A stretch of 64,000 bases of DNA from a virus: the IMG/VR virus record IMGVR_UViG_3300027969_000046. One strand, written 5' to 3'. Below, one piece after another: positions 12,238 through 62,112 of the stretch. The notes beneath the pieces are model-generated. The model had not been told where the DNA came from. It saw only the letters and a program-made list of their open reading frames with translations, and did no database searches. Position 1 is the first letter of the stretch; every line of letters begins with the position of its first letter. Made by a program: the position numbers and the translations under genes.

Positions 12238-12269
12238 GGTTGTATCTAGTGAAAAATGGAGTTTATATT

Positions 12270-29921: not shown

Positions 29922-31030
29922 ATTTGAGTAGAGAACAGGCAAACTATGTTGCCTCGGTGTTTGAAGATTACTTTGGTAACTTCAATCGAATTGATGAGTA
30001 TATGCGTGAGCAGAAACTTAACTCATTGAAAGATTGGCCAGTGGCATTACCAGGATGTGGACCTGAAGAAGATTTGTTTTCAGATTTCAATATGGATCCA
30101 CAAAACATGGAGTTTGATATCGTTGACCTCGAATCACAGAGGTGGCAACAATACTTAGATATCATTTCTTCGCACAATAACCTTACATCACCTGGCCGTA
30201 ATGTTAGACTAGCAGTATTAGAAAAGACGACTCAGAAGTGGGTTGGTTTTATTCGTATCGGTTCTCCAACTATTATGATGAAGCCTCGCAATCAGTTACT
30301 TGATTGTGTTATCACTAATGAAACTGCAACGACCAAATCATTCAATAATGCTTCTGCAATGGGTTTCGTTATCGTACCTGCACAACCATTTGGTTACAAC
30401 TATCTTGGTGGTAAGTTACTTGCTGCTATCTGTTGTTCACATGAAGTCCGTGAAATTCTCAATAAGAAGTATAATATGAATATGTGCTTGTTTGAAACCA
30501 CATCTTTGTATGGCACATCAAAGGCTATCTCACAATATGATGGTATGAAACCATATTTACGATTCAAAGGTGTAACTGAATCAGATTTTCTACCAATGAT
30601 GCACGGTAAACCATATGATGACCTCAAAAATTATGTTGAAGGTATTGTTGGTGAGTTTGTTCCGCCTGATGCCTCTAGCCGTAAGTTAAAGATTAGTACC
30701 ACAATCATTGCTATGACCAAGGCTGCATTGAAACCACATAAAGAAGATTATGATAGGTTCATGGCTACAATCAACAAGGCCAAGTCCCTAACAGAACAGA
30801 AGCGATACTATGTGTCCAACTATGGTATTGCAAACTATAAAGATATTGTTCTTGGAAAAACCTCTGAGATTGTCAAAGATGAGAACTATGATAAACACTA
30901 TTTGGCTAACATTACAGAGTGGTGGAAGAAGAAAGCATCTGCTCGCTTCGTATCATTAAAACAACAGGCCAAGGTCAGGACAGAGATGGAAGTATGGACA
31001 AGTGGCAAAGTCCTTGACATAATCCGTTGA
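29918..31030 (+). CDS. DUF4338/DruA-like protein, probable GNAT/Mom-like fold (paralog 2)
   Basis: PGRNVRLAVLEKTTQKWVGFI, VPAQPFGYNYLGGKLLA, ETTSLYG..SQYDG. Confidence 0.65.
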   Translation: MNLSREQANYVASVFEDYFGNFNRIDEYMREQKLNSLKDWPVALPGCGPEEDLFSDFNMDPQNMEFDIVDLESQRWQQYLDIISSHNNLTSPGRNVRLAVLEKTTQKWVGFIRIGSPTIMMKPRNQLLDCVITNETATTKSFNNASAMGFVIVPAQPFGYNYLGGKLLAAICCSHEVREILNKKYNMNMCLFETTSLYGTSKAISQYDGMKPYLRFKGVTESDFLPMMHGKPYDDLKNYVEGIVGEFVPPDASSRKLKISTTIIAMTKAALKPHKEDYDRFMATINKAKSLTEQKRYYVSNYGIANYKDIVLGKTSEIVKDENYDKHYLANITEWWKKKASARFVSLKQQAKVRTEMEVWTSGKVLDIIR

Positions 31031-31074: not shown

Positions 31075-32274
31075 ATGGCAACAAAGACTACGGCTACTGC
31101 GATAGCATTAACGAAAGTTTTAAAAAGTTTGGGAATTAGTGAAAAAGAAAATAAAAATGGTTACTTTACTGCACCAAAGTCCGCAGTTGGTAAAGAATTT
31201 ATTATATTTTTGCCAGAAAAAAATAGAGTTAATGAAACTTATACAAAAAAAACAAGAAAAGATTTTCTTGTAAATGAACTTTTACCACACCTATCTTCAA
31301 AATTTAATGGTGCTAAATATGAATTTGTTGCTAAAAATTCAACAGCCGGTCAGATTTCATTTACAGGTTCTCAAATATACATCATAGCAAAATTAATTGC
31401 TATGAAAGGTGCTGGTGCTAGTAAAGGTGCTGCCTTTGAATATGATTTAGAAAAAGATTTTAACCAACTTATTAAAGGCACCAATAAATTTTTATATCCA
31501 AATTTTATGAAAGAGTTTGAAAAAACTGTTCTTAAAGGCGCTAAGGTTATTTCTGTTGATGTTACTGGTAAAGAAAACACACCAAGACCTTTGAAGTTTG
31601 ATGCTAAAGGAATTTATTGTTCAATGAAAGGTGGTGCAAGAACGACTGACATTGGTGCAGGTTTAGCTGATGTGAAAGTTAAAATTAAACGAGGAAATGT
31701 TGCAGAAACTTTAGACTTGTCTGCAAAATTTGGAACAACAGTTACTTTTTTTAATTCTGGTTTAGGTAGTGGAACTTTTCCACCAGAAGGTGCTTTTCCA
31801 GCTTCAGAATTTAAAAGTGGCAATTTTTCAACAGAATCAGGATTAGCAATTTTAGATTTATTTGGTTTAGATCCTAAAAGATTTAGAGATGTTTTTGTTA
31901 AATATAAAGAAAAATCTGGTGTCATTAAGAAAACGGCCGCTCCTAAACATACTGAAACTGTTTCTATTTCAGGTAAAAGAAAAACAGAATTGCAAGGATT
32001 TTTAAAAACTATTATTGGCCACAATTATTATTTGTGCCATTTAGACGATAGGAAAAATGTTCATTTGTTTGTTATGACCGAAAAGTTTTTAACTGAAGCT
32101 TCAACAATTACTAGCTCAGATTTAACAATTTATTATCCAGTTGGCGGTTCAGCAAAAAGAATTGATATAAAATTAGAAACAAAAATGTATGAATTAAATT
32201 TTAATATCAGAAGTAAAGCTGCTGGTGTAACATACCCTACACACATAATGTGTGATTACAAATTTAAACACTAA
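31075..32274 (+). CDS. AT-rich hypothetical protein, possible PD-(D/E)xK nuclease
   Basis: GAAFE...LADVKV...LSAK arrangement; upstream TTGACA-17 nt-TAGGAT (31014-31042). Confidence 0.5.
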   Translation: MATKTTATAIALTKVLKSLGISEKENKNGYFTAPKSAVGKEFIIFLPEKNRVNETYTKKTRKDFLVNELLPHLSSKFNGAKYEFVAKNSTAGQISFTGSQIYIIAKLIAMKGAGASKGAAFEYDLEKDFNQLIKGTNKFLYPNFMKEFEKTVLKGAKVISVDVTGKENTPRPLKFDAKGIYCSMKGGARTTDIGAGLADVKVKIKRGNVAETLDLSAKFGTTVTFFNSGLGSGTFPPEGAFPASEFKSGNFSTESGLAILDLFGLDPKRFRDVFVKYKEKSGVIKKTAAPKHTETVSISGKRKTELQGFLKTIIGHNYYLCHLDDRKNVHLFVMTEKFLTEASTITSSDLTIYYPVGGSAKRIDIKLETKMYELNFNIRSKAAGVTYPTHIMCDYKFKH

Positions 32275-32275
32275 A

Positions 32276-33505
32276 ATGAACTTCACACAATATTTAACAG
32301 AAAGTAAAGAAGGCAAGAACCTTCACCTAGAACATATCGAAGATGAGATGTTGAATCGTGGTGTAGCGGGGGCTCGTGAATCAATTAATTTTCTCCGTTC
32401 ACTCAGAGATATGCTCGCTGGTCATTCACAATCTCATGTTAATGTAACAACAAAATGGGACGGTGCACCTGCGGTGTTTGCTGGTATTAATCCAGAGAAT
32501 GGTAAATTCTTTGTTGGTACTAAAGGTGTATTCAATGCAACACCTAAGTTAAACTACACAGATGCTGACATTGACAAGAATCATCCTGGCGAAGGTCTTA
32601 ATGCCAAATTAAAAGTTGCATTACGCTATTTACCAAAACTTGGTATCAAAGGTGTGTTGCAAGGCGATATGATGTTTGCAAAAGGTGATATAAAAGACCA
32701 AACAATTGATGGTGAAGATTATATTACTTTTCAACCAAATACTATTGTGTATGCCGTTCCTGCTGATTCAAAGTTAGCTAAATCAATGACAGCTGCACAG
32801 ATGGGTATTGTGTTTCATACATCATATACAGGTAAAACCATATCTGATATGAAGGCTTCATTCAACATTGATATTGGTAAGTTATCTACAACCAAAGATG
32901 TTTGGTTCCGTGATGCTTCATTTGTTGATGCTTCTGGTACTGCCACATTTACAGAAGCAGAAACCAAAGAACTTACTGGTATTCTATCTCAAGCAGGTTC
33001 ATTGTTTCAACAGATTAATCCAATGGCATTGAATCGTATTTCTGCCAATGACACCATTCTCACACAGATTAAAACCTTCTATAACAGTAAAGTCCGTTCT
33101 GGTGAAAAGATTAAGAATACATTACAACATACAAATGAATTGATTAGAACTATTGAAGCCAAATTAAACAAAGAAGTTCTTGAAGCTAAATTAGAAAAGA
33201 CTAAAAAAGAAAGAATTGCAAAGAAGAATGAAATTATGCGGTTCTATCGTAGTAATGCCAATGAATTGAAAAAGATATTTGATTTACAGAATCTAATTGT
33301 TGATGCCAAATTAATGATTGTTGGTAAACTACAAAATCTAAAACAACTTACTGGAACATTCATTAAAACTGAAGATGGTTTCCGTATTACTGCACCAGAG
33401 GGATTTGTGGCAGTAGATAGATTGAAAGGTAATGCCATGAAATTGATTGACCGATTTGTATTCGCACATGATAACTTTAACGCACAAAAGAATTGGGACA
33501 AATAA
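32276..33505 (+). CDS. Conserved T4-like protein with ligase-type nucleotidyltransferase motifs
   Basis: TTKWDGAP (KxDG), LQGD, PEGFV, MKLI; N-terminus MNFTQYLTE. Confidence 0.6.
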   Translation: MNFTQYLTESKEGKNLHLEHIEDEMLNRGVAGARESINFLRSLRDMLAGHSQSHVNVTTKWDGAPAVFAGINPENGKFFVGTKGVFNATPKLNYTDADIDKNHPGEGLNAKLKVALRYLPKLGIKGVLQGDMMFAKGDIKDQTIDGEDYITFQPNTIVYAVPADSKLAKSMTAAQMGIVFHTSYTGKTISDMKASFNIDIGKLSTTKDVWFRDASFVDASGTATFTEAETKELTGILSQAGSLFQQINPMALNRISANDTILTQIKTFYNSKVRSGEKIKNTLQHTNELIRTIEAKLNKEVLEAKLEKTKKERIAKKNEIMRFYRSNANELKKIFDLQNLIVDAKLMIVGKLQNLKQLTGTFIKTEDGFRITAPEGFVAVDRLKGNAMKLIDRFVFAHDNFNAQKNWDK

Positions 33506-34167: not shown

Positions 34168-35013
34168 ATGAAAGATTTAGTGATTGGATGTACCACAAAT
34201 TATGATTGGAGTAAACTGAAGTATTGGGTTAACTCCATCAATAAATCAGGTTTTCAAGGCGAGAAAGTTATGGTCGCCTTTAACATTGATTATGAAACCA
34301 TTGAAAAATTATCTCAAGCTGGTTTTCAGGTTATTTTGCCTGGAAAACCGAACGAACAAGCACAGCGATATGAATATCAATCATCGTTGCCTGTCCATGT
34401 AGAACGCTTTGTTCACATCTACAATTACCTACAATCACACGACAACTATCGGTTTGTTATTACAACCGATGTTAAAGATGTAGTATTCCAAAAAGACCCT
34501 ACTAAGTTTCTTGGCATGGAATTGCCAGGTGCTAAGTTGATGTTTGCTTCCGAATCTATGAAGTATAAAGATGAGCCATGGGGCAATCAGAACTTAATGG
34601 AAACATTTGGTCCCTTTTTCCATGAAAGATTCAAAGACAATATCATCTACAATGTAGGCGTTTTGGCAGGTCGTGGCGATGCGATGAGAGATTTATGTGC
34701 GATGATATTCGTTATGTCTGTTAATCGACCTATCCCAATCGTAGACCAGTCCACATTTAACTTTATGATTTCACAAGAGCCATATAAATCTGTTGCAAGA
34801 TATATGACCTCTGAAGAAGGTTGGGCTTGCCAACTAGGCACTACTGCCGATCCAAGTAAACTTGAACAGTTTAAACCTTTTTTGCTTGAACCCTCACCGA
34901 TTATGGTTGACGGCGAAGTTGCAACTTCAGCAGGAAAAGCCTTTACAATTGTTCATCAATATGATAGAGTACCAGAATGGAAAAAGGTTATAGAGGAAAA
35001 ATATAATGACTAA
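34168..35013 (+). CDS. Glycosyltransferase-like protein
   Basis: TTDVKDVVFQ, NVGVLAG, DQSTFN, HQYDR. Confidence 0.7.
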   Translation: MKDLVIGCTTNYDWSKLKYWVNSINKSGFQGEKVMVAFNIDYETIEKLSQAGFQVILPGKPNEQAQRYEYQSSLPVHVERFVHIYNYLQSHDNYRFVITTDVKDVVFQKDPTKFLGMELPGAKLMFASESMKYKDEPWGNQNLMETFGPFFHERFKDNIIYNVGVLAGRGDAMRDLCAMIFVMSVNRPIPIVDQSTFNFMISQEPYKSVARYMTSEEGWACQLGTTADPSKLEQFKPFLLEPSPIMVDGEVATSAGKAFTIVHQYDRVPEWKKVIEEKYND

Positions 35014-36034
35014 AAGAGTATTAATTACAGGCGGTGCAGGTTTTATCGCCCACCACCTGATTGAAACAATCCTTGATAATACAGATTGGACAATCGTATC
35101 GCTTGACCGACTTGACTTTTCAGGCAATCTAAATCGCCTTGAAGATATTATGAAGAAGTATTCACCTGAGCAGAAGAAGCGAGTTGAGATTGTATTCCAT
35201 GATTTACGAGCTGAAGTAAACCCACAGACTGCTGGTCTAATTGGTGATTGTCAGTTAGTATTGCACCTTGCAGCTGGTTCTCATGTTGACCGCTCAATCG
35301 AATTCCCTATGGAGTTTGTGCAAGACAATGTAATTGGTACAGTTAATCTGTTACAGTTTGCTCGCACACTAAAGAACTTAGAAAAGTTTGTTTACTTCTC
35401 AACAGATGAAGTATTTGGTCCCGCACCTGAAGGTGTTGACTACAAAGAAAGAGACCGCTACAATGCTACGAATCCATATTCAGCATCTAAGGCGGCAGGT
35501 GAAGAAATGTGTGTTGCATTTGAAAACACATACAATATGCCAATCATCGTTACTCATACAATGAATGTGTTTGGTGAACGCCAACATCCTGAAAAGTTTA
35601 TTCCTAAGGCCATTCGGTATGCTCGTGATGGTTTAACACTTACTATCCATTCAGACAGAAACAAAACAAAGGCAGGTTCACGCCACTATGTTCATGCTAA
35701 AGATGTTGCAGATGGTTTGATGTTTATTCTTAATCTGCCTGAAGATTATGCTCGCATTCCTGATTTTGGTGGTGCGAAGATTCCTAAGTTTAACATTGTT
35801 GGTCCCGATGAAGTAGATAACTTAGAGTTGGCTAAACTAATTGCAGAAGCACAAAATAAGGAACTCAAATATGAAATGGTTGACTTTCATTCATCCAGAC
35901 CTGGCCACGATTTACGTTACGCTCTTTCTGGTGATTATATGGCATCTCTAGGATGGAAACCAAAGATTTCGTTGCGTGAACGAATCAAAGGTATGGTTCA
36001 ATGGTCATTAGAAAATGATAAGTGGCTAAAATGA
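35006..36034 (+). CDS. rfbB: NDP-glucose 4,6-dehydratase (RmlB/RfbB-like)
   Basis: GGAGFI, HLAAGSHVDRS, STDEVFG, YSASK, RPGHDLRY. Confidence 0.9.
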   Translation: MTKRVLITGGAGFIAHHLIETILDNTDWTIVSLDRLDFSGNLNRLEDIMKKYSPEQKKRVEIVFHDLRAEVNPQTAGLIGDCQLVLHLAAGSHVDRSIEFPMEFVQDNVIGTVNLLQFARTLKNLEKFVYFSTDEVFGPAPEGVDYKERDRYNATNPYSASKAAGEEMCVAFENTYNMPIIVTHTMNVFGERQHPEKFIPKAIRYARDGLTLTIHSDRNKTKAGSRHYVHAKDVADGLMFILNLPEDYARIPDFGGAKIPKFNIVGPDEVDNLELAKLIAEAQNKELKYEMVDFHSSRPGHDLRYALSGDYMASLGWKPKISLRERIKGMVQWSLENDKWLK

Positions 36035-36735
36035 AAATAGCACTCTGTTTATCAGGACAACCTCGTAGTGTAAAACAAGGCTACGAGTTTGTTAAGAAGA
36101 ACATTTTGGACGGTAACGATGTTACCGTTTTTTGCCAAGTTTGGGAAGCAGATGGTGCAGAAGATTTAAACCTTTATAAGCCAGAAGTTGTGTTTATGGA
36201 GAAATCATTAAACACCGACCTATCAAAATACACCAATGTTCCGCCACCGCAACCAAACTGGAAAGTAAAAGACCCAGCTCGTTCCACTTGGAATCAGTTG
36301 TATGCTCTTAAAGTAGCAAACACACTTAAATCGGTGTATGAACAGAATGAAAATATGAAATTTGATTGGGTCATTCGTAGTCGTTATGACTTTGCAATCA
36401 ATGTTAAGATTCCATTTGCAGAACTAGATAATAGTAAACTGTATATTCCAAATTGCAGGCAAGTTCCTAATCGTGATTTTGGTAATGACCAGTTTGCCTT
36501 TTCATCTTCAGAAAACATGGACAAGTATGCTGACACATACACACACTTAGATAGATTCTATGATAGTGGCATACAGATGATGTGTGAAGATATGATGAGT
36601 GCTAATTGGAAAGAAAAAGGCCTTGTTGGTGAAAACTTGGTGTATTGTAACATCAATCATCCATTTCCACCTGGTGCTTACAATGGCACATGGCACAGTT
36701 TAATTCGTGAGGACTTTGAGCAATGGCTGCGTTAA
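36031..36735 (+). CDS. Putative glycosyltransferase-like protein
   Basis: KIALCLSGQPR, DWVIRSRYD, NDQFAF; cluster context. Confidence 0.55.
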   Translation: MKIALCLSGQPRSVKQGYEFVKKNILDGNDVTVFCQVWEADGAEDLNLYKPEVVFMEKSLNTDLSKYTNVPPPQPNWKVKDPARSTWNQLYALKVANTLKSVYEQNENMKFDWVIRSRYDFAINVKIPFAELDNSKLYIPNCRQVPNRDFGNDQFAFSSSENMDKYADTYTHLDRFYDSGIQMMCEDMMSANWKEKGLVGENLVYCNINHPFPPGAYNGTWHSLIREDFEQWLR

Positions 36736-37445
36736 TAGTTTGTATGGCTGGTTTGAACACCAGATTCCATGATGTGGGTTTTGATATACCAAAGTATCTA
36801 TTACCTTGGGGTGAAGAAACAATCATCCATGAAATTCTTAAACAATTAGGTAAGTTTGATGAGGTCTTGTTGTTGGCTAATAAGCGTGATGCTTATTTTA
36901 TGCCTGATTTGGTAAAGACTATTGAACCACTTGGTCTCACTAAAGATAACATTCATTACATTGGTGATACAAGTGGTCAAGCACACACCGCATACATTGG
37001 TGCTTCATTATTGAAAGACAGATTTCAACCATTCTTTGTTCATAATGCTGATACACTATTGGTTGGTAGAAATTTCAAAGATATTGAATCTGTAATGTCT
37101 GATGGTTATGTTGATGTGTTTGTTGCCAACAATCCAAAATACTCTTATGTTAGGTCAAAAGATGGTATTGTGACTGAGATTGTTGAAAAGTCTGCTATCT
37201 CACCATTCGCAAGTTCTGGTTTGTATGGTTTTTATAGTGCTGAATTGTATCAACAAATGTATGAGGCACTATCACAAGGCTTTACTGGTAAAGAAATGTA
37301 TATTGCTAATGTGTTAGATTACATGATAAAGAATAATAAGTTTGTTGGTCTAAATGAATTGAACAATGAATATGAAACAATAGTTCTTGGTAGTCCACAA
37401 GAATATGGACTTGAATTGGCTAAAAAGAGTTTAAAGTTAAGATGA
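36723..37445 (+). CDS. Sugar-phosphate nucleotidyltransferase
   Basis: MAGLNTRF...PKYLL, NADT, VEK. Confidence 0.8.
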   Translation: MAALIVCMAGLNTRFHDVGFDIPKYLLPWGEETIIHEILKQLGKFDEVLLLANKRDAYFMPDLVKTIEPLGLTKDNIHYIGDTSGQAHTAYIGASLLKDRFQPFFVHNADTLLVGRNFKDIESVMSDGYVDVFVANNPKYSYVRSKDGIVTEIVEKSAISPFASSGLYGFYSAELYQQMYEALSQGFTGKEMYIANVLDYMIKNNKFVGLNELNNEYETIVLGSPQEYGLELAKKSLKLR

Positions 37446-38404
37446 AGATTACTAAGTTAAAAGGTGGTTCTTTAAGTAGCACATCTTTGTATGAAGATGG
37501 TAATAACAAATTCATTCGTAAAGCTATTAGCACAAAAGATAACCGAGAGTATGGTTATGTTCGTTGGTATTCTCAGTTAAAGAAACTACAACGATTTGCT
37601 GGAACAGGTTTATACCCTAAAGTTTTAAAAGTTGGCACCACAGATAATGGTGCATACTTTGATATTGAATATCTCAAAGGTTATAGAGATATTAAAACTA
37701 TCCTTTCAGAAGATACTTTAACTGTTCCACAAATTGAACAGATTAATGAGGCTGTCTGGCGGTCTTTTGATAATCACCATCGTAAAATGTATTTGCCAGT
37801 TAATGGTGCAGGTGCATTGTATTTCAAAGAAGAAGTTATACAGAAACTATCCGATGCCTTTAAATATCAGAAGTTTTACAATTTCTATGAATCTGGTTTA
37901 TTGGATTCTTTTGAATACAATGGTCGTATCACACATGGCATTCAAAACTTTTTACCAGAACTAAAAAACTTCTTTGATGAACTTAATTTCACCACAGAAG
38001 AAACCATTCATGGTAATCCAACGCTTGAGAATATGATGTATTCTTTTGATGATGATAGAGTAGTTTTTATTGACCCATATGAAGAAAGTTGTATTGATTC
38101 TCGCCTCTTAGATTATTCACAAGTGTTACAATGTTCAAGAAGTTATTATGGTCACATAAATGATAATGAAGTAACAGTAGATGGCCCATCTGTTGGATAT
38201 CATGGTGAGATACCAAATAATTTTATCGTATTCAATAAACGATTTGAAGATAGAATTGACCCAGCGGATAGAAAAACTGTTGATGTATTAGAGGCAACAC
38301 AATTCATTCGTATGTTACCATTCAAGTGTGCAGCTGGTGAGATGGAGAAGGCGATGTTCTTCTATGTTCATGCTTGCCACCTATTAAGTAGAGCTTTCAA
38401 ATAA
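37442..38404 (+). CDS. APH/choline-kinase-like phosphotransferase
   Basis: GGSLS, IRK, HGNPTLEN, FIDP. Confidence 0.75.
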   Translation: MKITKLKGGSLSSTSLYEDGNNKFIRKAISTKDNREYGYVRWYSQLKKLQRFAGTGLYPKVLKVGTTDNGAYFDIEYLKGYRDIKTILSEDTLTVPQIEQINEAVWRSFDNHHRKMYLPVNGAGALYFKEEVIQKLSDAFKYQKFYNFYESGLLDSFEYNGRITHGIQNFLPELKNFFDELNFTTEETIHGNPTLENMMYSFDDDRVVFIDPYEESCIDSRLLDYSQVLQCSRSYYGHINDNEVTVDGPSVGYHGEIPNNFIVFNKRFEDRIDPADRKTVDVLEATQFIRMLPFKCAAGEMEKAMFFYVHACHLLSRAFK

Positions 38405-39546
38405 TGGAAAATGTATTAACTAAATTCGACAATTATAAACGCACATGGTCTGTCAAGGCAGAACTACCAATTGAGTTTACACTAAAGTATTCTAGTGATG
38501 TATTCAATTGGAGTAATCACGACCTGTTGAGTTTTAGTGAGTCCAATCGTAGAGTGGTTGTTATAGACCAGACTGTATATAAACTATATGGTCAACAATT
38601 AGAAGATTACTTTAAAACATTTCAAATAGAATTGAAGTTGTTTATCATAGATGCCACAGAAGAAAAGAAAGATTGGCCACACACAGACCAAATTTTAAGG
38701 TTCTTTGAAGAAGTTGGTGTTTTGCGTAGAGAAGCAATCATTGTTATTGGTGGTGGTGTTCTACTAGACTTGGTTGGTTTCTGTTGTTCAATTTATCGCA
38801 GAGGCATTCCTTACATTAAAGTGCCAACTACATTGTTGGCTATTGTAGATGCTTCAGTTGGTGTTAAAGTTGCAGCTAACCACTTTGGTCGTAGAAATCG
38901 TATCGGTGCATATTATCCACCAATTGCCACATTACTAGACAAGAAGTTTATTGCTACACAAGATGAAAGAAACATTGTTAATGGTATTGCAGAGATATTT
39001 AAACTTGCAGTAATCAAAGATAAAGAATTGTTTGAGTTGTTAGAAACAAGTGCAGAACAATTAATCACCGAAAAGTTTCAATTTGGTGCGGTACCAGTTC
39101 GTGTAATCAATTCTGCCATTACAGGTATGATTGAAGAATTGGCACCAAACCTATGGGAAAGAAAACTAGACCGATGTGTTGACTTTGGCCATTCGTTTAG
39201 TCCTATTATTGAAATGCAGAATGTTGCTACATTACAACATGGTGAGGCGGTTGTATTAGATTGCCTGTTGAGTTCTTGCTTGGCTAATGTCCGTGGTTAT
39301 ATTGATACTGAAACACTACAAAGAATATTTAAGACAGCACACAGTTTAAAATTGCCTGTATTCCATAAAGATTTCTGTAATTTTGATTTGCTTAAAAAGT
39401 CATTATCTGATACAATGAAACATAGAAATGGTAATCAATACTTACCTGTTCCTGTTGGCATTGGTAACTATAAAATATTAAATGATGTAACTGATGATGA
39501 GATAAAGAAAGCTTCAGATATATTTGAAGAAGTTAAATATGAATAA
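38404..39546 (+). CDS. Sedoheptulose-7-phosphate cyclase, EEVS (2-epi-5-epi-valiolone synthase) type
   Basis: GGGVLLD, YRRG.PYIKVPTTLL..VDA, MIEELAPNLWE...RCVDFGHSFSP, HGEAV. Confidence 0.85.
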   Translation: MENVLTKFDNYKRTWSVKAELPIEFTLKYSSDVFNWSNHDLLSFSESNRRVVVIDQTVYKLYGQQLEDYFKTFQIELKLFIIDATEEKKDWPHTDQILRFFEEVGVLRREAIIVIGGGVLLDLVGFCCSIYRRGIPYIKVPTTLLAIVDASVGVKVAANHFGRRNRIGAYYPPIATLLDKKFIATQDERNIVNGIAEIFKLAVIKDKELFELLETSAEQLITEKFQFGAVPVRVINSAITGMIEELAPNLWERKLDRCVDFGHSFSPIIEMQNVATLQHGEAVVLDCLLSSCLANVRGYIDTETLQRIFKTAHSLKLPVFHKDFCNFDLLKKSLSDTMKHRNGNQYLPVPVGIGNYKILNDVTDDEIKKASDIFEEVKYE

Positions 39547-40216
39547 GACCATTTTGATTACTGGCACCACAAGTGGTGTTGGTGCAACAATCGCATATGA
39601 TTACATTGAGAAAGGTTGGAATGTAATTGGTCTTGCTCGTGGTGAATCTTTATTTGATTATGCAAACTACAAACACTTTCAAGTTGATGTTGGCAATCCA
39701 TACCACTTGAATGAAGTGTTTGAACAGATTGGTAATAAGAACATTGATATTCTAGTTAATAATGCAGCTGTGTTTAAGATGAAACCATTTTCACAAACCA
39801 GTATTGATGAGATTGATGATATGATTGATATTAATCTTAAAGGTGCCATGTATGTAACTAAGTTTGCATTACAGAATATGGAAAAAGGTAGTCGTATATT
39901 CTTTATTAATTCGGTGGCAGGCCTTGAAGAACTAGAAAATCAATCAGCATATTGTTCCTCTAAACATGGTCTTACAGGATTTGCTGGTGTTCTTGGTCAA
40001 GAGTTACGGCCAAGAGGCATTAAAGTAACAAGTATCCATCCAGGCGGTATTGATACGCCATTATGGAGTAGAGATATACCTTACCCGTGTGGTGATGTGA
40101 GTAAGGCAATATCACCAATGGAACTTGTGAAAGTAATTGATTTCGTGTATAATAGCCAATTCAATATTGAATACAAGACTATTAAAATGTTTCCTGATAC
40201 AGAGTGGCATAAATGA
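39539..40216 (+). CDS. Short-chain dehydrogenase/reductase
   Basis: TGTTSGVG, NNAA, YCSSK, PGGIDT. Confidence 0.92.
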   Translation: MNKTILITGTTSGVGATIAYDYIEKGWNVIGLARGESLFDYANYKHFQVDVGNPYHLNEVFEQIGNKNIDILVNNAAVFKMKPFSQTSIDEIDDMIDINLKGAMYVTKFALQNMEKGSRIFFINSVAGLEELENQSAYCSSKHGLTGFAGVLGQELRPRGIKVTSIHPGGIDTPLWSRDIPYPCGDVSKAISPMELVKVIDFVYNSQFNIEYKTIKMFPDTEWHK

Positions 40217-40926
40217 TTATACCAAGTACCGACTTATTCATTGTAACATCTGCTTTGAGAACGAGCATTGGTGTTATTGATGATGAAACGAGATTAAAAC
40301 AAACAATAGAAGGCCTGCAATCATTACGCAAGGCCGCACCTGATGCCATTATCCTATGGGTAGATGCTTCGTCCAAAATGGTTGATGAAGCAACAATGGT
40401 TACAGTAAGTCAATATTGTGATAGAAGTATCAGTTTCTTTGGTGATGAAGATTTAATGACGCTTGCAAATGCAGGCCTCAAATCACAAGCAGAAGTTACT
40501 TTATTGTTTAAGACACTAGGTATTATTAAACAACATCCTGAATTACAGAAGATGATGGCTGGTGTTCGTAGAGTGTTTAAGCTATCTGCTAGAACCAATA
40601 TGCTTGAGGGTTATGACCCTAAGGTATATGATAATCTATATGGTAAGTATGTGTTTAAGAAAAGAATACCATCTTGGTTGCCACCATATAAACAAGTGGA
40701 ATCTGATTGTAACCATCTATACATAACTAGGATGTATTCATTCTGTGTATCATTGATTGATAACTATTTGCATATTCTACCAGAAATATACCGAACAGTT
40801 AATGAATTTGGTGTAGATACAGAACACGCACATTTTGGTAACACAGACAAAAATTTAACTGTTGAATTTGAAAATTTATATTGTGAAGGAGTTTTGGCAG
40901 GAAATGGCCAGACAGAAAGATATTAA
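40213..40926 (+). CDS. Hypothetical protein in the glycan cluster
   Basis: FIVTSA...FKLSAR; cluster context. Confidence 0.6.
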   Translation: MIIPSTDLFIVTSALRTSIGVIDDETRLKQTIEGLQSLRKAAPDAIILWVDASSKMVDEATMVTVSQYCDRSISFFGDEDLMTLANAGLKSQAEVTLLFKTLGIIKQHPELQKMMAGVRRVFKLSARTNMLEGYDPKVYDNLYGKYVFKKRIPSWLPPYKQVESDCNHLYITRMYSFCVSLIDNYLHILPEIYRTVNEFGVDTEHAHFGNTDKNLTVEFENLYCEGVLAGNGQTERY

Positions 40927-42212
40927 TGATTGACGAAAAAATACAAGAACTAGCTAAACTTGCTAGACCAAAATATTTACAGAATTACGACAACTTCAAA
41001 CCTGGCGAAGATTATGTAATGTATTCTGGCCAATTGTGGGACGAAAGAGAGATGGAACTTTCTCTTAAAGCATTCCTTACAGGCAAATGGGTTTCAGCAG
41101 GTGAGAATGTTGAGAAGTTTCAGATTAAATTCTCCAAGAAATACAATGTCAAAGCCTCACACATGGTCAATTCTGGTTCATCTGCCAACTTGGTGATGAT
41201 TGCAGGTGTTAAGAAACATTTGAAATGGGAAGATGGCGATGAAGTCATCGTATCACCTGTTGGTTTTCCAACCACAATTGCACCATTGGTTCAGAACAAT
41301 CTTAAACCAGTATTTGTTGATATTGAGTTTGATACATTAAATTTTGATGTTAATAAGATTGAAGCGAAGATTACTTCAAAGACTAAAGCAATTATTGTAT
41401 CTCCTGTGATGGCCAATCCGCCTGACATGGATATAATCCATGATATCTGTTACAGAAACAATTTAGTATTGATTGGTGATAATTGTGATTCACTAGGTAC
41501 AAAATGGAATGGTAAACTGTTGACAGATTTGTATTACTGCTGGTCAACTTCATTCTATCCCGCACACCACATCTCAACAGGCGAAGGTGGCATGGTATCA
41601 TCTAATGATAGCTTGTTGATTGATACTGTTAGGTCATTCAGTTGGTGGGGTCGTGATTGTTACTGCATTGGTTCTAACAATCAACTTCCATGTGGCACTT
41701 GCGGTAACCGATTCGACAGATGGTTGCCAGGCTATGATGGCATTATTGACCACAAATATATCTTTGCAAACATGGGTTACAATTTGAAACCACTTGATAT
41801 GCAAGGTGCAATTGGTATTGCTCAGTTAGAAAAGGTTGATTACATTGACCAGAAACGCAGAGAACATAAACTAAGATTGGCTAAATTATTGACGGACAAT
41901 CTAAATGTCCGTGTTGCTGATAAACTAGAGCAATCAGACCCATCTTGGTTCGGTGTTCCAATTATCTGTGAAACACAAGAGATTAAAGAGAAGTTGGTTG
42001 CACACTTTGAAGCCAATAAAATTCAGACACGAAACTATTTTGCTGGTAACATCTTGTTACATCCAGGTTACAATCACTTAGATGATTCTAGTAAATATCC
42101 ATTAGCAAACAAAGCACTATCTCATGTCTTTATCTTGGGCTGCCCTCCATTTTGGAATGATGCTGTGTTTAAATATATTGAAAAGGTGATTAAAGATGCC
42201 AAGTCCATCTAA
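40926..42212 (+). CDS. rfbH: CDP-4-keto-6-deoxyglucose 3-dehydrase (RfbH/E1-like, PMP and Fe-S)
   Basis: NSGSSAN, SFYPAHH (His replaces the PLP lysine), GRDCYC..CG.RF, DHKY. Confidence 0.88.
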   Translation: MIDEKIQELAKLARPKYLQNYDNFKPGEDYVMYSGQLWDEREMELSLKAFLTGKWVSAGENVEKFQIKFSKKYNVKASHMVNSGSSANLVMIAGVKKHLKWEDGDEVIVSPVGFPTTIAPLVQNNLKPVFVDIEFDTLNFDVNKIEAKITSKTKAIIVSPVMANPPDMDIIHDICYRNNLVLIGDNCDSLGTKWNGKLLTDLYYCWSTSFYPAHHISTGEGGMVSSNDSLLIDTVRSFSWWGRDCYCIGSNNQLPCGTCGNRFDRWLPGYDGIIDHKYIFANMGYNLKPLDMQGAIGIAQLEKVDYIDQKRREHKLRLAKLLTDNLNVRVADKLEQSDPSWFGVPIICETQEIKEKLVAHFEANKIQTRNYFAGNILLHPGYNHLDDSSKYPLANKALSHVFILGCPPFWNDAVFKYIEKVIKDAKSI

Positions 42213-43023
42213 ATTTCAAATATTTGGTGGTTCAGGTTTTGTTGGTTCTGAATTGGTTAAACAAATTGAAAACTGTATTGTAACTCCACGCCGTGATTAT
42301 ACAGTAGAAGGTTGTGATATCATTTATTTGATTTCAACTGTTAGTAACTACAATGTTAAAACAGACCCTCTTATTGACATTGACACCAATTTAACAACTC
42401 TTATGCAGGTGTTAAGACAATGTAAAGATAGAAATTTGACATTCAATTTTATTAGTTCATGGTTTGTTTATGGTGAAACTGAAATGCCTGCAACGGAAGA
42501 ATCAAATTGTTATCCAAATGGATTTTATTCAATCACTAAACGCTGTGCCGAGCAACTACTAATTTCTTATTGTGAAACCTTTGGCATCAAATATCGTATT
42601 CTCCGTCTTGCCAATGTGGCAGGTAGTGGTGATAAGAAAGCCTCACCACAAAAGAACGCACTTCAACATATGATTAATGAATTGAAGGCAGGCCGTGATG
42701 TGAATGTGTATGATGGTGGGAATCTATTCCGTGACTACATCCATGTTAACGATGTTGCTACGGCAATTAAGACCATCGTGGAAAAAGGCGAAGTTAATAC
42801 CATCTATAATGTGGGCAATGGCAAACCTATGTTGTTTAAAGATATGATTGAGTATGCCAAAGAGTTAATTGGCGGTGAAGGCAAATTAAATCCAATTGAA
42901 ATTCCGCAGTTCCATCGCACGGTACAAGTTCGTAGTATGTGGATGCTCAGCGACAAACTTAAATCGCTTGGGTACGAGCCAAAATACGATTTGAAGGCTA
43001 TCATTGAAGATATGGTTCGATGA
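42196..43023 (+). CDS. NAD-dependent epimerase/reductase
   Basis: GGSGFVG, YSITK, RDYIHV. Confidence 0.85.
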   Translation: MPSPSKFQIFGGSGFVGSELVKQIENCIVTPRRDYTVEGCDIIYLISTVSNYNVKTDPLIDIDTNLTTLMQVLRQCKDRNLTFNFISSWFVYGETEMPATEESNCYPNGFYSITKRCAEQLLISYCETFGIKYRILRLANVAGSGDKKASPQKNALQHMINELKAGRDVNVYDGGNLFRDYIHVNDVATAIKTIVEKGEVNTIYNVGNGKPMLFKDMIEYAKELIGGEGKLNPIEIPQFHRTVQVRSMWMLSDKLKSLGYEPKYDLKAIIEDMVR

Positions 43024-43667
43024 ATCTTAAAATCTATCAAGCATACTATGATTCGGTACAGTTACCTAACTTAGACCCCGTATTCATACCTTACGATAAT
43101 ACCGCAAACGATGCTCCTGAAATGCGTGAGTTGCCTATGTGGCGAAAACTCTTAGAGAAACATAAAGATTCTGATGCTCATTGGGGTTTATTATCTTGGA
43201 GATGGTTACATAAAACAGGATTGCCGCCATATCAGTTCAGAGATTGGATACAAGAAAATCCTGGCTACGATGTATATCATTTCGACCCATTCAAACATTT
43301 AGCTGATGAATATCCAAATTTATGGGTGCAAGGTGATAGATGGCATCCAGGCATGATTAACTTTGCGAACAGATTATTTCCAAAAATTGGTATTGATACA
43401 CCAGTTGAGCAATTTAAATATCTACCAGAAGATTTTGGAAGTTGTAATTATTTCATTGGTAATAGTAAATTTTGGAAAAATTACCTGTCTTTTCTTGACC
43501 TATGTCTAAGAACTTGTGAAGAAGATGTAGCTCTAAGCAACTACATATACAAAGAAGGTCAAACATATAATGGCCATTTTCTTCCATATTTTTCATTTGT
43601 AATAGAAAGATTGTTTTCTATTCATAACATATTGAACCGTGATATTACAGTTAAAAGATACCCATGA
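43020..43667 (+). CDS. Hypothetical protein, possible glycosyltransferase
   Basis: WGLLSWR, CNYFIG, FVIERLF; cluster context. Confidence 0.55.
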   Translation: MNLKIYQAYYDSVQLPNLDPVFIPYDNTANDAPEMRELPMWRKLLEKHKDSDAHWGLLSWRWLHKTGLPPYQFRDWIQENPGYDVYHFDPFKHLADEYPNLWVQGDRWHPGMINFANRLFPKIGIDTPVEQFKYLPEDFGSCNYFIGNSKFWKNYLSFLDLCLRTCEEDVALSNYIYKEGQTYNGHFLPYFSFVIERLFSIHNILNRDITVKRYP

Positions 43668-44443
43668 TTAATGAATTTGATTACGAAAAACTGAATAAAG
43701 AGTATAATGATGGCAAACCGTTTCGCCATGTGGTGATTGACAATTTCTTTGATGATGAAACAGCATTGAAATTATCTTCTGAATTTCCTGATTTTAATGA
43801 CCCAATCATTTGGTCTGTATATAAGAGTCCAATTGAGAACAAGAAATTGACTCCTAATTGGGATTTGTTTCCTAAAGAAACATACAAGGCCTTTTCGTTG
43901 ATGAATACACCAGAGTTTGTGGACAAAGTCCGTAAAATTACTGGTATTAATAATTTAGAAGCTGATTATGGACTACATGGTGGCGGTTGGCATATGACTG
44001 CTCGTGGTGGTAAATTGAATATGCATAAAGACTATTCAATTCATCCAAAACTAGGTAAAGAAAGACGAATCAATATCATCATCTACATGACACCAGAATG
44101 GCAAGAAGAATGGAATGGTGGTTTAGAATTCTGGTCACATAATGAAGAAAAGAATCTTCCAAAAGAGTGTGTAACCAAAGTATTCAATAAATTTAATAGT
44201 GCGGTTCTATTTGATACCGCAGACAATTCATGGCATGGTCTGCCAACAGAACTCCAATGTCCTGATGGCGTCTATCGCAAGTCATTGAATATCTACTATG
44301 TTTCAGAAGCTCGTCAAGAAGCAGAGAAACACGATAGAGCCATGTTTGCCCCCTATGGAGAACAAGCAAACAATCCCGATATACTTGAACTTATTAAGAA
44401 AAGGTCTAGTTCCAAGACATCTGCTGATACATATAGAACCTAA
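43664..44443 (+). CDS. 2OG-Fe(II) oxygenase
   Basis: HKD, GGLE, SWHG, RKSL. Confidence 0.88.
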   Translation: MINEFDYEKLNKEYNDGKPFRHVVIDNFFDDETALKLSSEFPDFNDPIIWSVYKSPIENKKLTPNWDLFPKETYKAFSLMNTPEFVDKVRKITGINNLEADYGLHGGGWHMTARGGKLNMHKDYSIHPKLGKERRINIIIYMTPEWQEEWNGGLEFWSHNEEKNLPKECVTKVFNKFNSAVLFDTADNSWHGLPTELQCPDGVYRKSLNIYYVSEARQEAEKHDRAMFAPYGEQANNPDILELIKKRSSSKTSADTYRT

Positions 44444-44448
44444 ATTTA

Positions 44449-44456
44449 TATAAATA
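44449..44456 (+). promoter_or_regulatory. T4-type late promoter
   Basis: Exact TATAAATA before the head-associated gene block. Confidence 0.8.
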
Positions 44457-44495: not shown

Positions 44496-46775
44496 ATGAA
44501 ATTTAGAGATTTTATACTAGAAGCAACAGAGAAGCACGCCGTCATGGCCTTTGGAAGGATGAACCCTCCAACGACTGGTCATGCCAAATTGGTCGATAAG
44601 GTCAAAGAGGTTGCTGCTGAACACAAAGCTTCACATCATGTGGTATTATCTCATTCTCAGGATGCTAAAAAGAATCCTCTCTCCGCTAAAGACAAACTGA
44701 AACACGCAAAGCGTTTCTTCCCAAACACCAATCTGTCCACTTCAGATTCGGAACATCCAACTTTCCTACATCATGCTGCTAAATTACACAAACAAGGTGT
44801 AACGCATTTGCACATGGTTGCTGGTTCTGACCGCACAGACGAATATAAGAAAAAGTTGGCTCAGTATAATGGAAAACACGAAGGTGCATTATTCAATTTT
44901 AAAAAGATTACTGTTCATTCTTCTGGTGAAAGAGATCCTGATGCTGAAGGCACAGAAGGAATGTCAGCCTCCAAAATGAGAGGTCATGCTTCAACAAGTA
45001 ACTTTAAAGAATTTAAGAAAGGTATTCCTGGCCATGTACCTGAACACCATGCAAAAGAATTAATGCACGATGTTCGTAAAGGTATGGGACTTAAAGAAAG
45101 TGTAGATGAACTCTTTGAAGAATTGTTAACTGAAGGTGTGCATGACAAAGGCATTTTTAAGGCAGTATTCTTAGCAGGTGGTCCTGGTTCTGGTAAAGAT
45201 TATGTTTTAGATAACACACTTGCTGGCCACGGCATGACCGAGATTAACTCTGATAAAGCATTAGAGTTTTTGATGGACAAAAAAGGCCTTAATAAGACCA
45301 TGCCTGCTTCTGAAAAAGTTGCAAGAGATGTTGAGCGTGGTAAGGCCAAGAACATGACCGAGTTACGCCAAAGATTGGCACTACATGGTCGTAATGGTGT
45401 TATCATCAACGGTACTGGTGATGATGCTGAAAAGATTAAAAAAATTAAAAGTCGTTTAGAAGAACTTGGTTACGATACTGCCATGATTATGGTTAATACT
45501 CGTGATGAAGTATCTGCTTCACGAAATGTTGAAAGAGGTCAAAGAGGTGGTAGAAGTGTACCTGAAACCATCCGTAAACAGAAATGGCAATCGGTACAAG
45601 ATTCAAGAGCAGACTTAGCAAAACTATTTGGTGACAAGTATGTTGAGTTTGATAACTCTGAAGATTTAAGAAGTGCCAAACCAGAAATTGTGCAAGCTAA
45701 GAAAGAAGAAATGTTGAATATCTATAAAGGTGTTCAGAAGTTTATTAAAACTCCACCTAAAGCACCACAAGCAAAAGAATGGATTGGCCAAGAATTAGAA
45801 AAGAGTGATAAATTGCCTGTCAACACCAAAGTTGATTCTATGCCACATCCTAATAGTGGTGCAGCTGATGAAGCTCGTAAGATGGGATTACAATATTATG
45901 GTTTTGGTCGTTATGGTAAAGATGGTAAAGTTACATTCCGTTCTGTCCATGATAAATTACAACAAGTTAAACCTGATGAACCAAAGGTAACTCCATTGCA
46001 AACAAAACCAGTTGCTAAGAAAGTCAACGAAGAATTTGAAAACGAATTTGCTAATCCTTTGTTAGAATCAGCACTTGATAAGTTCCGTGCTGCTGCAGCT
46101 GAGAGAGAAAAGAAACACAATGAGATTGAGGCTAAACGCAAAGAAGCTGAAAAACAAGGTAAAGAAAATATGTCTGGCTCTATTGACCGTTTAGAGAAAC
46201 ATTTAAATAAAGAATCACATGAAATAAATCATAAGAGTTTATTGAAGGATACACACGGCAAAGTAAGAACATTTATGCTTCGCCGTTCTGCTGCTAAAGA
46301 AGCCCACATAAATGGTGGTGTAGTCTATAAGCAAGGCAAGGGGTATGTAATTAAAATCAAGGAGAATGAAGATGTTAAAGTTAATCAAAAGTTTTTTCAA
46401 GAAAGCGGAAGAACCAACACCAGTAGTAGCACCGGAACCAGTAGTATCTCCGAAGCCGACTACCAATACCAAACCGGTAGTGACCTCGAAAACAGTCCCG
46501 TCAAAACCAAAATCACCCTCAACCAAATCCGCACCAAGAAAGAAAGTAAAGTAAAAGAGTCGATTGATAAGGGTATTGAACCTGGTATGTCTATGGCAGC
46601 TGGCGGAGAATCCATTGGTCGTGATATGGGCGAGAAGATTAAGAAGCGGAAGATTTCTGTTACTGAAATGCAAGGTGACGAAACTACCGCTTCTATCGGT
46701 GACCAAAAAGAAGATGAATTAAAGAAGAAAGGCATAGACCTTTTATCGTTCAGAAAAAGAAATTACGCACTATGA
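44496..46775 (+). CDS. Fusion of HxGH-type nucleotidyltransferase, P-loop kinase and low-complexity tail
   Basis: FGRMNPPTTGH, VAGSDR, MSASKMR; KAVFLAGGPGSGK. Confidence 0.75.
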   Translation: MKFRDFILEATEKHAVMAFGRMNPPTTGHAKLVDKVKEVAAEHKASHHVVLSHSQDAKKNPLSAKDKLKHAKRFFPNTNLSTSDSEHPTFLHHAAKLHKQGVTHLHMVAGSDRTDEYKKKLAQYNGKHEGALFNFKKITVHSSGERDPDAEGTEGMSASKMRGHASTSNFKEFKKGIPGHVPEHHAKELMHDVRKGMGLKESVDELFEELLTEGVHDKGIFKAVFLAGGPGSGKDYVLDNTLAGHGMTEINSDKALEFLMDKKGLNKTMPASEKVARDVERGKAKNMTELRQRLALHGRNGVIINGTGDDAEKIKKIKSRLEELGYDTAMIMVNTRDEVSASRNVERGQRGGRSVPETIRKQKWQSVQDSRADLAKLFGDKYVEFDNSEDLRSAKPEIVQAKKEEMLNIYKGVQKFIKTPPKAPQAKEWIGQELEKSDKLPVNTKVDSMPHPNSGAADEARKMGLQYYGFGRYGKDGKVTFRSVHDKLQQVKPDEPKVTPLQTKPVAKKVNEEFENEFANPLLESALDKFRAAAAEREKKHNEIEAKRKEAEKQGKENMSGSIDRLEKHLNKESHEINHKSLLKDTHGKVRTFMLRRSAAKEAHINGGVVYKQGKGYVIKIKENEDVKVNQKFFQESGRTNTSSSTGTSSISEADYQYQTGSDLENSPVKTKITLNQIRTKKESKVKESIDKGIEPGMSMAAGGESIGRDMGEKIKKRKISVTEMQGDETTASIGDQKEDELKKKGIDLLSFRKRNYAL
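46372..46554 (+). CDS. Overprinted small Pro/Lys-rich protein in another frame inside 44496..46775
   Basis: AAGGAG 7 nt before ATG; amphipathic N-terminus MLKLIKSFFKK, then P/K/T/S-rich tail. Confidence 0.55.
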   Translation: MLKLIKSFFKKAEEPTPVVAPEPVVSPKPTTNTKPVVTSKTVPSKPKSPSTKSAPRKKVK

Positions 46776-61785: not shown

Positions 61786-62112
61786 ATGATTACTGTAACA
61801 GATAGTGCTTTCAATAAAATTAGAGATTTAATTGTTGAAGAAAAAGATAACGATAATTTGGCATTAAGAATGTCAGTAAGAGGCGGTGGGTGTTCAGGTT
61901 TTCAATATGAATTTACCTTTGATGACAAACAAGAAGAAGATGATTTTGTGATTGAAAAAGATTCCATTAAAGTGTTTGTTGATTCAATGTCAGCACAATA
62001 TTTAATGGGAGCTACTTTAGATTACAAAGATGAAAAATTCAATTCACAATTTGTCATAACTAATCCTGAGGTTAAATCAACTTGTGGTTGTGGTTCATCG
62101 GTAGCATTTTAA
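61786..62112 (+). CDS. erpA: A-type Fe-S carrier (ErpA/IscA family)
   Basis: GGGCSGFQY, TCGCGSS. Confidence 0.9.
   Translation: MITVTDSAFNKIRDLIVEEKDNDNLALRMSVRGGGCSGFQYEFTFDDKQEEDDFVIEKDSIKVFVDSMSAQYLMGATLDYKDEKFNSQFVITNPEVKSTCGCGSSVAF

Follow-up and report, generated by a model that had tools for sequence, protein, structure and literature searches.

The 64,000-nucleotide stretch of viral DNA analysed here (IMG/VR record IMGVR_UViG_3300027969_000046, hereafter the window) is a single-strand segment of a T4-like myovirus, and carries within its replication region an operon of twelve overlapping or abutting + strand genes (34168–44443) that includes a cyclase of the type of EEVS, the synthase of 2-epi-5-epi-valiolone. 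The best explanation of this operon, and in our estimation probably the correct one, is that it makes and transfers an activated C7-cyclitol. An earlier note on this DNA, made from the letters of the sequence, had proposed a pathway to a nucleoside diphosphate (NDP)-linked carbasugar, a reading that is plausibly right, although within it we infer rather than observe the product, the formation of an NDP-cyclitol and the identity of the acceptor. The seven genes that constitute the constant core of the operon are as follows.

34168–35013, + strand: GT-A-like glycosyltransferase (GT), Nucleotid_trans-like (PF03407, phrog_1579); first gene of the operon
36022–36735, + strand: DUF7796 protein with a predicted GT-A fold (ESM Atlas, phrog_13607, AlphaFold2 (AF2)/Foldseek)
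36723–37445, + strand: sugar-phosphate-type nucleotidyltransferase (NTase), the proposed cyclitol-phosphate NTase (PF00483, PDB 4evw)
37442–38404, + strand: small-molecule kinase-like protein of the aminoglycoside phosphotransferase (APH)/choline-kinase fold, with the loop HGNPTLEN (AF2 and Foldseek)
38404–39546, + strand: EEVS-type sedoheptulose-7-phosphate cyclase (ValA structure 4p53, ValA signature, trees)
39524–40216, + strand: classical short-chain dehydrogenase/reductase (SDR), the proposed ketoreductase for the cyclase product (adh_short, 5e-41)
40213–40926, + strand: virus-specific 237-amino-acid (aa) family, possibly a GT-like transferase (ESM Atlas neighbours)

The last six of these open reading frames (ORFs) occupy the middle of the operon and overlap their neighbours by 1–23 nt, an arrangement compatible with translational coupling and in agreement with the six coupled genes that had been placed at 36031–40926. 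They are not a chance grouping, because both their order and their content are kept in 25 IMG/VR contigs. The extent previously assigned to the cassette stands as regards these six genes but proved too small, the operon reaching from 34168 to 44443 and containing six further sugar genes that had been missed.

The 380-aa cyclase has the two-domain architecture of dehydroquinate synthase (DHQS)-like proteins (PF01761, DHQ_synthase, 3.7e-33; PF24621, DHQS_C, 6.9e-21). Comparison with all solved structures placed it closest to ValA, the EEVS of validamycin biosynthesis (4p53; 300 bits, E 1.9e-88), with the desmethyl-4-deoxygadusol synthase (DDGS) of Anabaena (5tpr) 79 bits behind (221 bits, E 1.7e-64), the many AroB structures at no more than 135 bits (E 1e-38 or weaker), and 2-deoxy-scyllo-inosose synthase (DOIS) at 81 bits; none of the NCBIfam AroB models gave a score that reached its curated threshold (216.8 bits against 305). 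The motif quoted in the earlier note, MIEELAPNLWE...VDFGHSFSP, is indeed present, followed by KHR; ValA reads MLEELQPNLWE...VDFGHSFSP, whereas the DDGS Ava_3858 reads MLELEVPNLHE...IAYGHTWSP...LTR, and the 2-epi-valiolone synthase (EVS) Amir_2000 carries an AroB-like NFGHTTGH in place of DFGHSFSP (sequences from the supplement of PMC4426668, a study in which bacterial EEVS enzymes are told from DDGS by two fingerprint sites). All of the motifs compared with ValA match: PNLWE, VDFGHSFSP and KHR, and likewise the three motifs of the metal ligands (AEI, GH and HGE). At the two discriminating sites, which are reportedly Asp281 and His360 of ValA (Kean et al. 2014), the phage enzyme has the Asp of VDFGH and the His of KHR, as does ValA, in place of the IAYGH and LTR of DDGS; when its 144 nearest 50%-identity representatives were aligned, the Asp was present in 143 and both residues in 127. 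Identity as a DDGS, the enzyme type of mycosporine-like amino acid (MAA) synthesis, was rejected on the bit scores and the differing motifs, and identity as an EVS on the NFGHTTGH of Amir_2000. By the combined testimony of scores, residues and trees, the cyclase is thus by sequence class an EEVS-type sedoheptulose-7-phosphate cyclase and not AroB, DDGS or EVS, as the earlier reading of its motifs had held; its product would be EEV (2-epi-5-epi-valiolone) or a close isomer.

In the tree of cyclases (157 rows), the phage sequences formed one supported clade within the radiation of sequences bearing the EEVS signature, and Salmonella AroB formed a long outgroup branch; the named anchors were taken from plasmid records. 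When the cyclase was searched against the proteins of GenBank phages (50,697 records), the matches were all AroB genes from records that are bacterial or contaminants, and none was of EEVS type. Fusion with ROK kinases is seen in many relatives of the cyclase (about 720–760 aa), and fusion with an NTP_transferase plus a hexapeptide domain in one. Fusion is frequent among metagenomic cyclases with the EEVS signature in general (P0122, P0129, P0130, P0136, P0137, P0155), and other partners include an AMP-binding enzyme and multidomain proteins of 2,400–2,800 aa that hold, besides two cyclase domains, domains of the ROK and zinc-dependent alcohol dehydrogenase (ADH) types.

The 320-aa kinase-fold protein gave almost no sequence signal, only a weak Pfam match to Fructosamin_kin; neither sequence nor profile searches with its family gave a significant PDB match, and a protein search of the same 50,697 GenBank phage records found no homologue. 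Its AF2 model (pLDDT 84.7) was matched by Foldseek, at E values of about 1e-7, to fructosamine-3-kinase (FN3K), LicA, APH(2''), NahK and methylthioribose (MTR) kinase, with a Foldseek probability of 1.00 for the first four. The bilobal kinase fold is present together with its conserved Lys and Mg-binding Asp (K27 and D211, both invariant), and the catalytic-loop positions H190-G-N192...N197 are likewise invariant in the family. Among these matches, LicA provides the kinase step in the CDP-choline route of LicA/LicC, and NahK and MTR kinase phosphorylate the anomeric hydroxyl of their respective sugars. The neighbouring NTase has the NTP_transferase fold (PF00483, E 2.8e-7; PDB 4evw, E 8.6e-16) and an N-terminal AGLNTRF...PK motif, and its bacterial homologues, at 35–60% identity, are encoded directly 5' of a kinase and a cyclase; the pairing of a LicA-like kinase with a LicC-like NTase resembles, by analogy, the CDP-choline case. 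The SDR retains its TGxxxGxG, NNAA and YxxxK motifs, all of them intact.

Counterparts of this module were located in bacteria by searching the kinase family against 185,579 species genomes, which gave five loci (L033–L037), a sixth (L032) being obtained from the nearest cyclase representative. Five of the six carry NTase, kinase, cyclase and reductase in the phage order (L032, L033, L035, L036 and L037), and L034 has the same genes, but with its NTase cut at the contig end. The reductase after the cyclase is an SDR in L033 and L034, whereas L032, L035 and L037 have an aldo-keto reductase at this place. The module is carried by two single-cell genomes of Prochlorococcus, by metagenome-assembled genomes (MAGs) assigned to the Magnetovibrionaceae, the Gammaproteobacteria and Ca. 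Caenarcanales (Lake Mendota), and by an NCBI MAG; the gammaproteobacterial module lies on a 262-kb contig and encodes a cyclase 69% identical to that of the phage. Neighbouring genes encode Wza, Wzz, GT1 and CTP_transf_3 proteins at L032, a GT2 at L033, a GT61, CTP_transf_3 and an inositol-monophosphatase-family protein at L035, and a GT9-like protein, CTP_transf_3 and an FkbM methyltransferase at L037. The trees of the cyclase, the kinase and the NTase were concordant: in each, the phages were monophyletic, the gammaproteobacterial and Caenarcanales pair was nearest to them, and the Prochlorococcus group was distant. Taken together, the shared gene order of phages and bacteria, the glycan genes beside the bacterial modules, the concordant trees and the fusions of cyclases with ROK kinases and NTP_transferase argue strongly, on genomic grounds, for phosphorylation and nucleotidylation of the cyclase product and for a role of the module in making glycans, and they bear out the claim that kinase, NTase and cyclase form one unit. 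The four-gene core, reductase included, is one that the phage shares with bacterial glycan loci and probably acquired from bacteria. A separate observation concerns the modules of L033 (9270–12781) and L034 (5–3180), which are closely similar (cyclase branch lengths of 0.011 and 0.068) in spite of their assignment to Gammaproteobacteria and to alphaproteobacterial Ca. Caenarcanales, respectively; this suggests either recent transfer or mis-binning, the L034 contig being only 4.2 kb long.

Because relatives of the cyclase occur in 25 IMG/VR contigs (64–99% identity, some contigs of 103–172 kb) and in 120 protein-database clusters (at least 81% identity, contigs up to 166 kb), the carrier of the cassette is a common environmental phage lineage. 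Mapping of the window genes on the 25 loci, which supplied the survey of conservation that had earlier been suggested, yielded the seven-gene core listed above; genes 35006, 40926, 42196, 43020 and 43664 were absent from the more distant loci, the accessory set varying between phages. A nucleotide search of GenBank phages with the whole operon gave no match. Full-text searches of the literature yielded no C7-cyclitol or EEVS pathway for any phage or virus, and none for Prochlorococcus, and the earlier statement that no phage pseudosugar pathway has been described therefore holds for GenBank phages and for the literature searched; phages and viruses go unmentioned in a 2026 review of cyclitols (PMC12904256).

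Three core proteins are candidate transferases. The 34168 product gave a weak match to PF03407 (E 0.0035) and matched the glycosyltransferase family phrog_1579 (E 3.8e-8), full-length ORFs being present in 18 of the 25 related loci. The 36022 ORF opens with GTG, and its probable true start is the ATG at 36031, with which the ESM Atlas record begins; the nearest ESM Atlas clusters of its product are viral DUF7796 proteins (score 0.98–0.99), its PHROG match is phrog_13607, and its AF2 model (pLDDT 62) was matched by Foldseek to GT6 and glycogenin, which are retaining GT-A enzymes (E 2e-5, TM about 0.5). Relatives of the same protein in BFVD come from cyanophages and giant viruses, some of them annotated as glycosyltransferases. 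The 40213 product, full-length in 21 related loci, had no Pfam, PHROG or PDB match; its nearest ESM Atlas clusters are 98–100% viral, and the nearest named ones are WavE (0.91), DUF7796 (0.89) and DUF1647 (TM 0.67). PDB sequence and profile searches with the 40213 and 36022 families gave nothing significant, and the idea that the two are paralogues was dropped when alignment of the families with hhalign gave a probability of 0.8%.

On the pathway that we propose, the cyclase, assigned to its class by sequence, would convert host sedoheptulose-7-phosphate into EEV or a close isomer with loss of the phosphate. The SDR would then reduce the ring ketone to a hydroxyl, and the kinase-fold protein, whose fold is taken from the model, would phosphorylate the resulting cyclitol at a position that we can only presume; the NTase, to judge from its gene linkage, would join the cyclitol phosphate to a nucleoside triphosphate to give an NDP-cyclitol. 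At least one of the three GT-A-like proteins (34168, 36022, 40213) would finally move the cyclitol, or the cyclitol phosphate, to an acceptor. Two modes of transfer may be envisaged: a pseudoglycosyl transfer, which would be chemically hard with a saturated carbasugar, or transfer of the cyclitol phosphate, as with CDP-choline, CDP-glycerol and CDP-ribitol. The likeliest acceptor would be a host envelope glycan, as has been proposed for the sugar ('LPS', lipopolysaccharide) clusters of T4-like cyanophages, and the host envelope is favoured because the bacterial module lies in envelope loci, because the cyanophage clusters offer a precedent, and because near-complete relatives of the phage lack a ThyA-family hydroxymethylase. 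In some of the phages, an optional module, in which a 4,6-dehydratase and an E1-type 3-dehydrase are joined by a reductase and by an oxygenase, would supply a second sugar of the dideoxyhexose type. The genes concerned, all of them accessory, are as follows.

35006–36034, + strand: NDP-hexose 4,6-dehydratase, variable between phages (GDP_Man_Dehyd/Epimerase, 4e-50)
40926–42212, + strand: RfbH/E1-like pyridoxamine 5'-phosphate (PMP)-dependent 3-dehydrase (NF011936 RfbH, 9e-108)
42196–43023, + strand: short extended SDR, an NDP-sugar reductase or epimerase (Epimerase, 8.7e-34)
43020–43667, + strand: unknown 215-aa protein without a family match, found only alongside the deoxysugar genes
43664–44443, + strand: 2-oxoglutarate (2OG)-Fe(II) oxygenase (PF13640, 4e-14); last gene of the operon

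The 35006 product scored 1.4e-70 against TIGR01181, under the cut-off of that model, and its gene is absent from related phage loci L008–L011 and L016–L020; the 40926 gene is absent from these loci and also from L023. The 40926 product bears an SFYPAHH motif, with His at the position of the pyridoxal 5'-phosphate (PLP)-binding Lys, plus a Cys cluster. The 42196 SDR has the motifs GGSGFVG and YSITK; an N-terminal truncation, raised by a Pfam match that begins at profile position 64, was dropped as a candidate, GGSGFVG lying near the N-terminus. Neither Pfam nor PHROG families matched the 43020 product, and no E3-type reductase was found in the accessory branch (40926–44443). Judged by these sequence assignments, the accessory genes look like a 3,6-dideoxyhexose branch. 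Far outside the operon, at 62082–62750, lies a 222-aa 'ferredoxin' family gene (phrog_3704).

Several points weigh against the pathway as set out above. The first concerns the kinase-fold protein, in which Asn192 occupies the position of the usual catalytic Asp (HGD to HGN), an assignment made by the spacing of the H-x-D-x4-N motif and not by superposition; this Asn of the HGN(P/S)TLEN loop is invariant across the phage and bacterial homologues, down to those of Prochlorococcus at ~30% identity, and the protein may use another base, for example Glu196, or may be no kinase. The second is chemical: a saturated carbasugar-NDP is a poor glycosyl donor, for which no oxocarbenium-like transition state can form. 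The known pseudoglycosyltransferases use the allylic GDP-valienol (PMC9200736), and no epimerase or dehydratase that might lead to valienol was recognised in the conserved core, with the 40213 product as a possible exception. The GT-A assignments are also weak, resting on predicted structure of modest quality for 36022 (pLDDT 62, TM about 0.5), on language-model neighbours for 40213 and on a Pfam E value of 0.0035 for 34168, and the operon encodes no flippase or polymerase. Finally, phylogeny, by which it had been suggested that the cyclase be placed among ValA/AcbC, DDGS, EVS and AroB, supports the position of AroB as outgroup and of the phage clade in the EEVS radiation but falls short in the deep branches, which are poorly resolved and include one Nostoc DDGS among EEVS-signature sequences, without support; the rows of the tree include no EVS, ValA or AcbC sequence.

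The analogy with acarbose and validamycin on which the earlier note had drawn fails on most of its defining parts. By sequence, the phage cyclase is of the same enzyme class as the EEVS enzymes of ValA/AcbC type, with the metal-ligand motifs and the discriminating Asp and His kept, although the carriers of the latter are actinomycetes and here the carrier is a phage. Both pathways possess a cyclitol-1-phosphate nucleotidyltransferase (VldB/AcbR), to which a linked phage enzyme of NTP_transferase fold, short and RmlA-like, is a candidate counterpart. The phage operon has no ROK kinase domain (ValC/AcbM), its kinase being of the APH/choline-kinase fold; neither the epimerase (AcbO) nor the dehydratase steps were recognised in its core; and it encodes no pseudoglycosyltransferase of GT20/GT5 type (ValL/VldE, AcbS), only GT-A-like proteins. 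The corresponding epimerase of the validamycin pathway is ValD. Because all three of these parts are absent, the phage pathway is not of the acarbose/validamycin (NDP-valienol) type.

Closer likenesses are found elsewhere. In the LicA/LicC/LicD system for phosphocholine, a kinase of choline-kinase/APH fold is likewise followed by an NTP_transferase-fold enzyme to give an NDP-activated alcohol, and the subsequent transfer, of the phospho-alcohol rather than of the alcohol, is chemically easy; the phage differs in that no LicD-type transferase was found, in that its substrate would be a cyclitol made in situ, and in the Asn for Asp of its kinase. The ADP-heptose pathway (GmhA, HldE, GmhB, HldD) rearranges sedoheptulose-7-phosphate, phosphorylates and nucleotidylates the product, and hands it to an envelope-glycan glycosyltransferase. 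Both the precursor and this overall logic are shared with the pathway proposed here, but the ADP-heptose route begins with isomerisation and the phage route with a DHQS-fold carbocyclisation, and the kinase and NTase families are unrelated. The sugar clusters of T4-like cyanomyoviruses (P-SSM2, S-SM2, Bellamy, DSL-LC03) likewise consist of a variable block of NDP-sugar enzymes and GTs, and those of S-SM2 and others have a DUF7796-like gene in common with the phage operon; they encode enzymes for true sugars (heptose, deoxyhexoses), whereas the phage operon has an EEVS-type cyclase. In P-SSM2, 24 putative LPS genes have been described (PMC1079782). In the S-SM2 cluster (L038, 253–14121), the annotations include a transketolase, phosphoheptose isomerase in two fragments, one fragment of a heptose kinase/adenylyltransferase and a 'dN-sugar pyrophosphorylase'; with its several GTs and the DUF7796-like gene, the cluster looks like a heptose route from the same precursor. 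Such a route, from phosphoheptose isomerase onward, starts from sedoheptulose-7-phosphate. The operon described here belongs among these variable sugar clusters of T4-like phages, with a proposed chemistry unreported for them.

The phage origin that the earlier note had assigned to the window was confirmed by homology annotation of its genes: the operon is flanked by T4-like genes for a helicase, an SbcCD-like nuclease, the clamp and clamp loader, DNA polymerase, UvsX, the replicative helicase and primase, and the other genes of the window include those for a ribonucleotide reductase and an endolysin. The DNA polymerase is 49.8% identical to its best cyanomyovirus match. A cyanophage host received no support, psbA not being found in the two near-complete relatives (95% and 100%), and because of this the host is probably not a cyanobacterium; a ThyA-family (thymidylate-synthase-family) hydroxymethylase was not found in the same two relatives. 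One further feature marks the boundary of the operon.

44449–44456, + strand: TATAAATA, a T4 late-promoter-like motif marking where the sugar operon ends and the next unit begins

This motif lies 40 nt 5' of the start codon at 44496 and is one of two copies in the window, a number that is no excess over chance. No late-promoter motif of this type occurs within the operon (34168–44443), and the nearest strong sigma-70-like sites are upstream of it, at 29845 and 31014; this placement hints, weakly, at early or middle expression.

Some other genes of the window call for brief mention. The phrog_455 profile is matched by two proteins, in its N-terminal half by the DUF6267 protein (32252–33505) and at positions 422–608 by the N-terminus, cytidylyltransferase-like, of the 759-aa protein encoded at 44496–46775; because the two match separate parts of it, they appear to be a single protein in other phages that is here split by the sugar operon. 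A Zeta-toxin/AAA_33 kinase domain is a further feature of the 759-aa protein, whose gene is the one preceded by TATAAATA. The gene for a 370-aa protein with a DruA (Druantia) domain match (29918–31030, E 1e-9) is preceded, at 29845, by a perfect TTGACA-17-TATAAT promoter. A peptide deformylase (7395–7997) and a CobS-like ATPase (12240–13484, a 'porphyrin biosynthesis' PHROG) are typical auxiliary genes of marine and freshwater T4-like phages.

As regards the target of decoration, for which virion, host surface and DNA had all been entertained, the host envelope is favoured and DNA is weakened by the want of a ThyA-family hydroxymethylase in the two near-complete relatives. A fuller and more tentative version of our proposal, which we consider possible at somewhat less than an even chance, is that C7-cyclitols are genuine monomers of envelope glycans, made in Prochlorococcus and proteobacteria by the four-gene module of NTase, APH-fold kinase, EEVS and reductase, which had gone unrecognised; an abundant group of T4-like phages would have captured this module, added transferases of their own, and decorated the infected cell or the virion with a cyclitol that resists glycosidases or is phosphodiester-linked, so altering receptor recognition or depolymerase resistance.

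That the same pathway serves instead to modify the phage itself, through virion proteins or phage DNA, seems unlikely, although the three GT-like families are almost solely viral and relatives of the DUF7796 fold occur in giant viruses, which glycosylate their capsids. The operon lies amid replication genes, with no late-promoter motif inside it and the nearby TATAAATA starting the next gene, the hydroxymethylase result tells against DNA, and the bacterial homologues of the module are in envelope-glycan loci.

An improbable view is that the product is a free small molecule, such as an inhibitor of glycosidases or of the heptose pathway, an osmolyte or a sunscreen precursor. The characterised EEVS pathways reviewed to date all end in soluble products, namely acarbose, validamycin, kirkamide and gadusol (PMC12904256), and the Asn substitution in the kinase puts the activation step in doubt; but in phages and bacteria the genes for NTase and cyclase show tight linkage, with GT-like genes beside them, Pfam annotation revealed no MT-Ox-type gadusol gene, the core has no aminotransferase, and the bacterial contexts are glycan loci.

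It is decidedly doubtful that the kinase, NTase and GTs act on ordinary hexoses, for example in feeding the dideoxyhexose branch, while the cyclase works separately, perhaps in draining sedoheptulose-7-phosphate: the window does hold a 4,6-dehydratase, an E1-like dehydrase and a reductase and no second NTase to provide their NDP-hexose, but NTase, kinase and cyclase are adjacent and co-evolving in phages and bacteria wholly without deoxysugar genes, and EEVS fusions with kinase or NTase exist.

The notion that we are dealing with an ordinary 3-dehydroquinate synthase (AroB) of aromatic amino-acid synthesis can be virtually dismissed, since the JGI label '3-dehydroquinate synthase' on close relatives and the 216.8 bits against the NCBIfam aroB model are outweighed by a cut-off of 305 for that model, by the margin of ValA over AroB structures (300 against at most 135 bits), by the replacement of the NxGH motif with DFGH-SFSP, by the long outgroup branch of Salmonella AroB, and by the recognition of no other shikimate-pathway gene among the annotated genes of the window.

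EEVS enzymes have so far been known as the way into soluble products (such as acarbose, validamycin, kirkamide and gadusol), whereas the cassette described here ties a cyclase of this type to a kinase-fold protein, an NTase and transferases, both in phages of a widespread lineage and at glycan loci of bacteria. It points to an activated carbasugar as a glycan component, of which we found no description. The cassette also shows that '3-dehydroquinate synthase' is a misnomer for thousands of metagenomic proteins on viral contigs, and natural-product chemists would gain from it a short enzymatic route to NDP-carbasugars; the kinase family, in which Asn invariably takes the place of the catalytic Asp, poses a mechanistic puzzle in itself. 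If the proposal is true, C7-cyclitols would be a new class of monomer for bacterial and viral glycobiology, and since a linkage without a ring oxygen is no substrate for ordinary glycosidases, their presence would bear on both receptor masking and depolymerase resistance.

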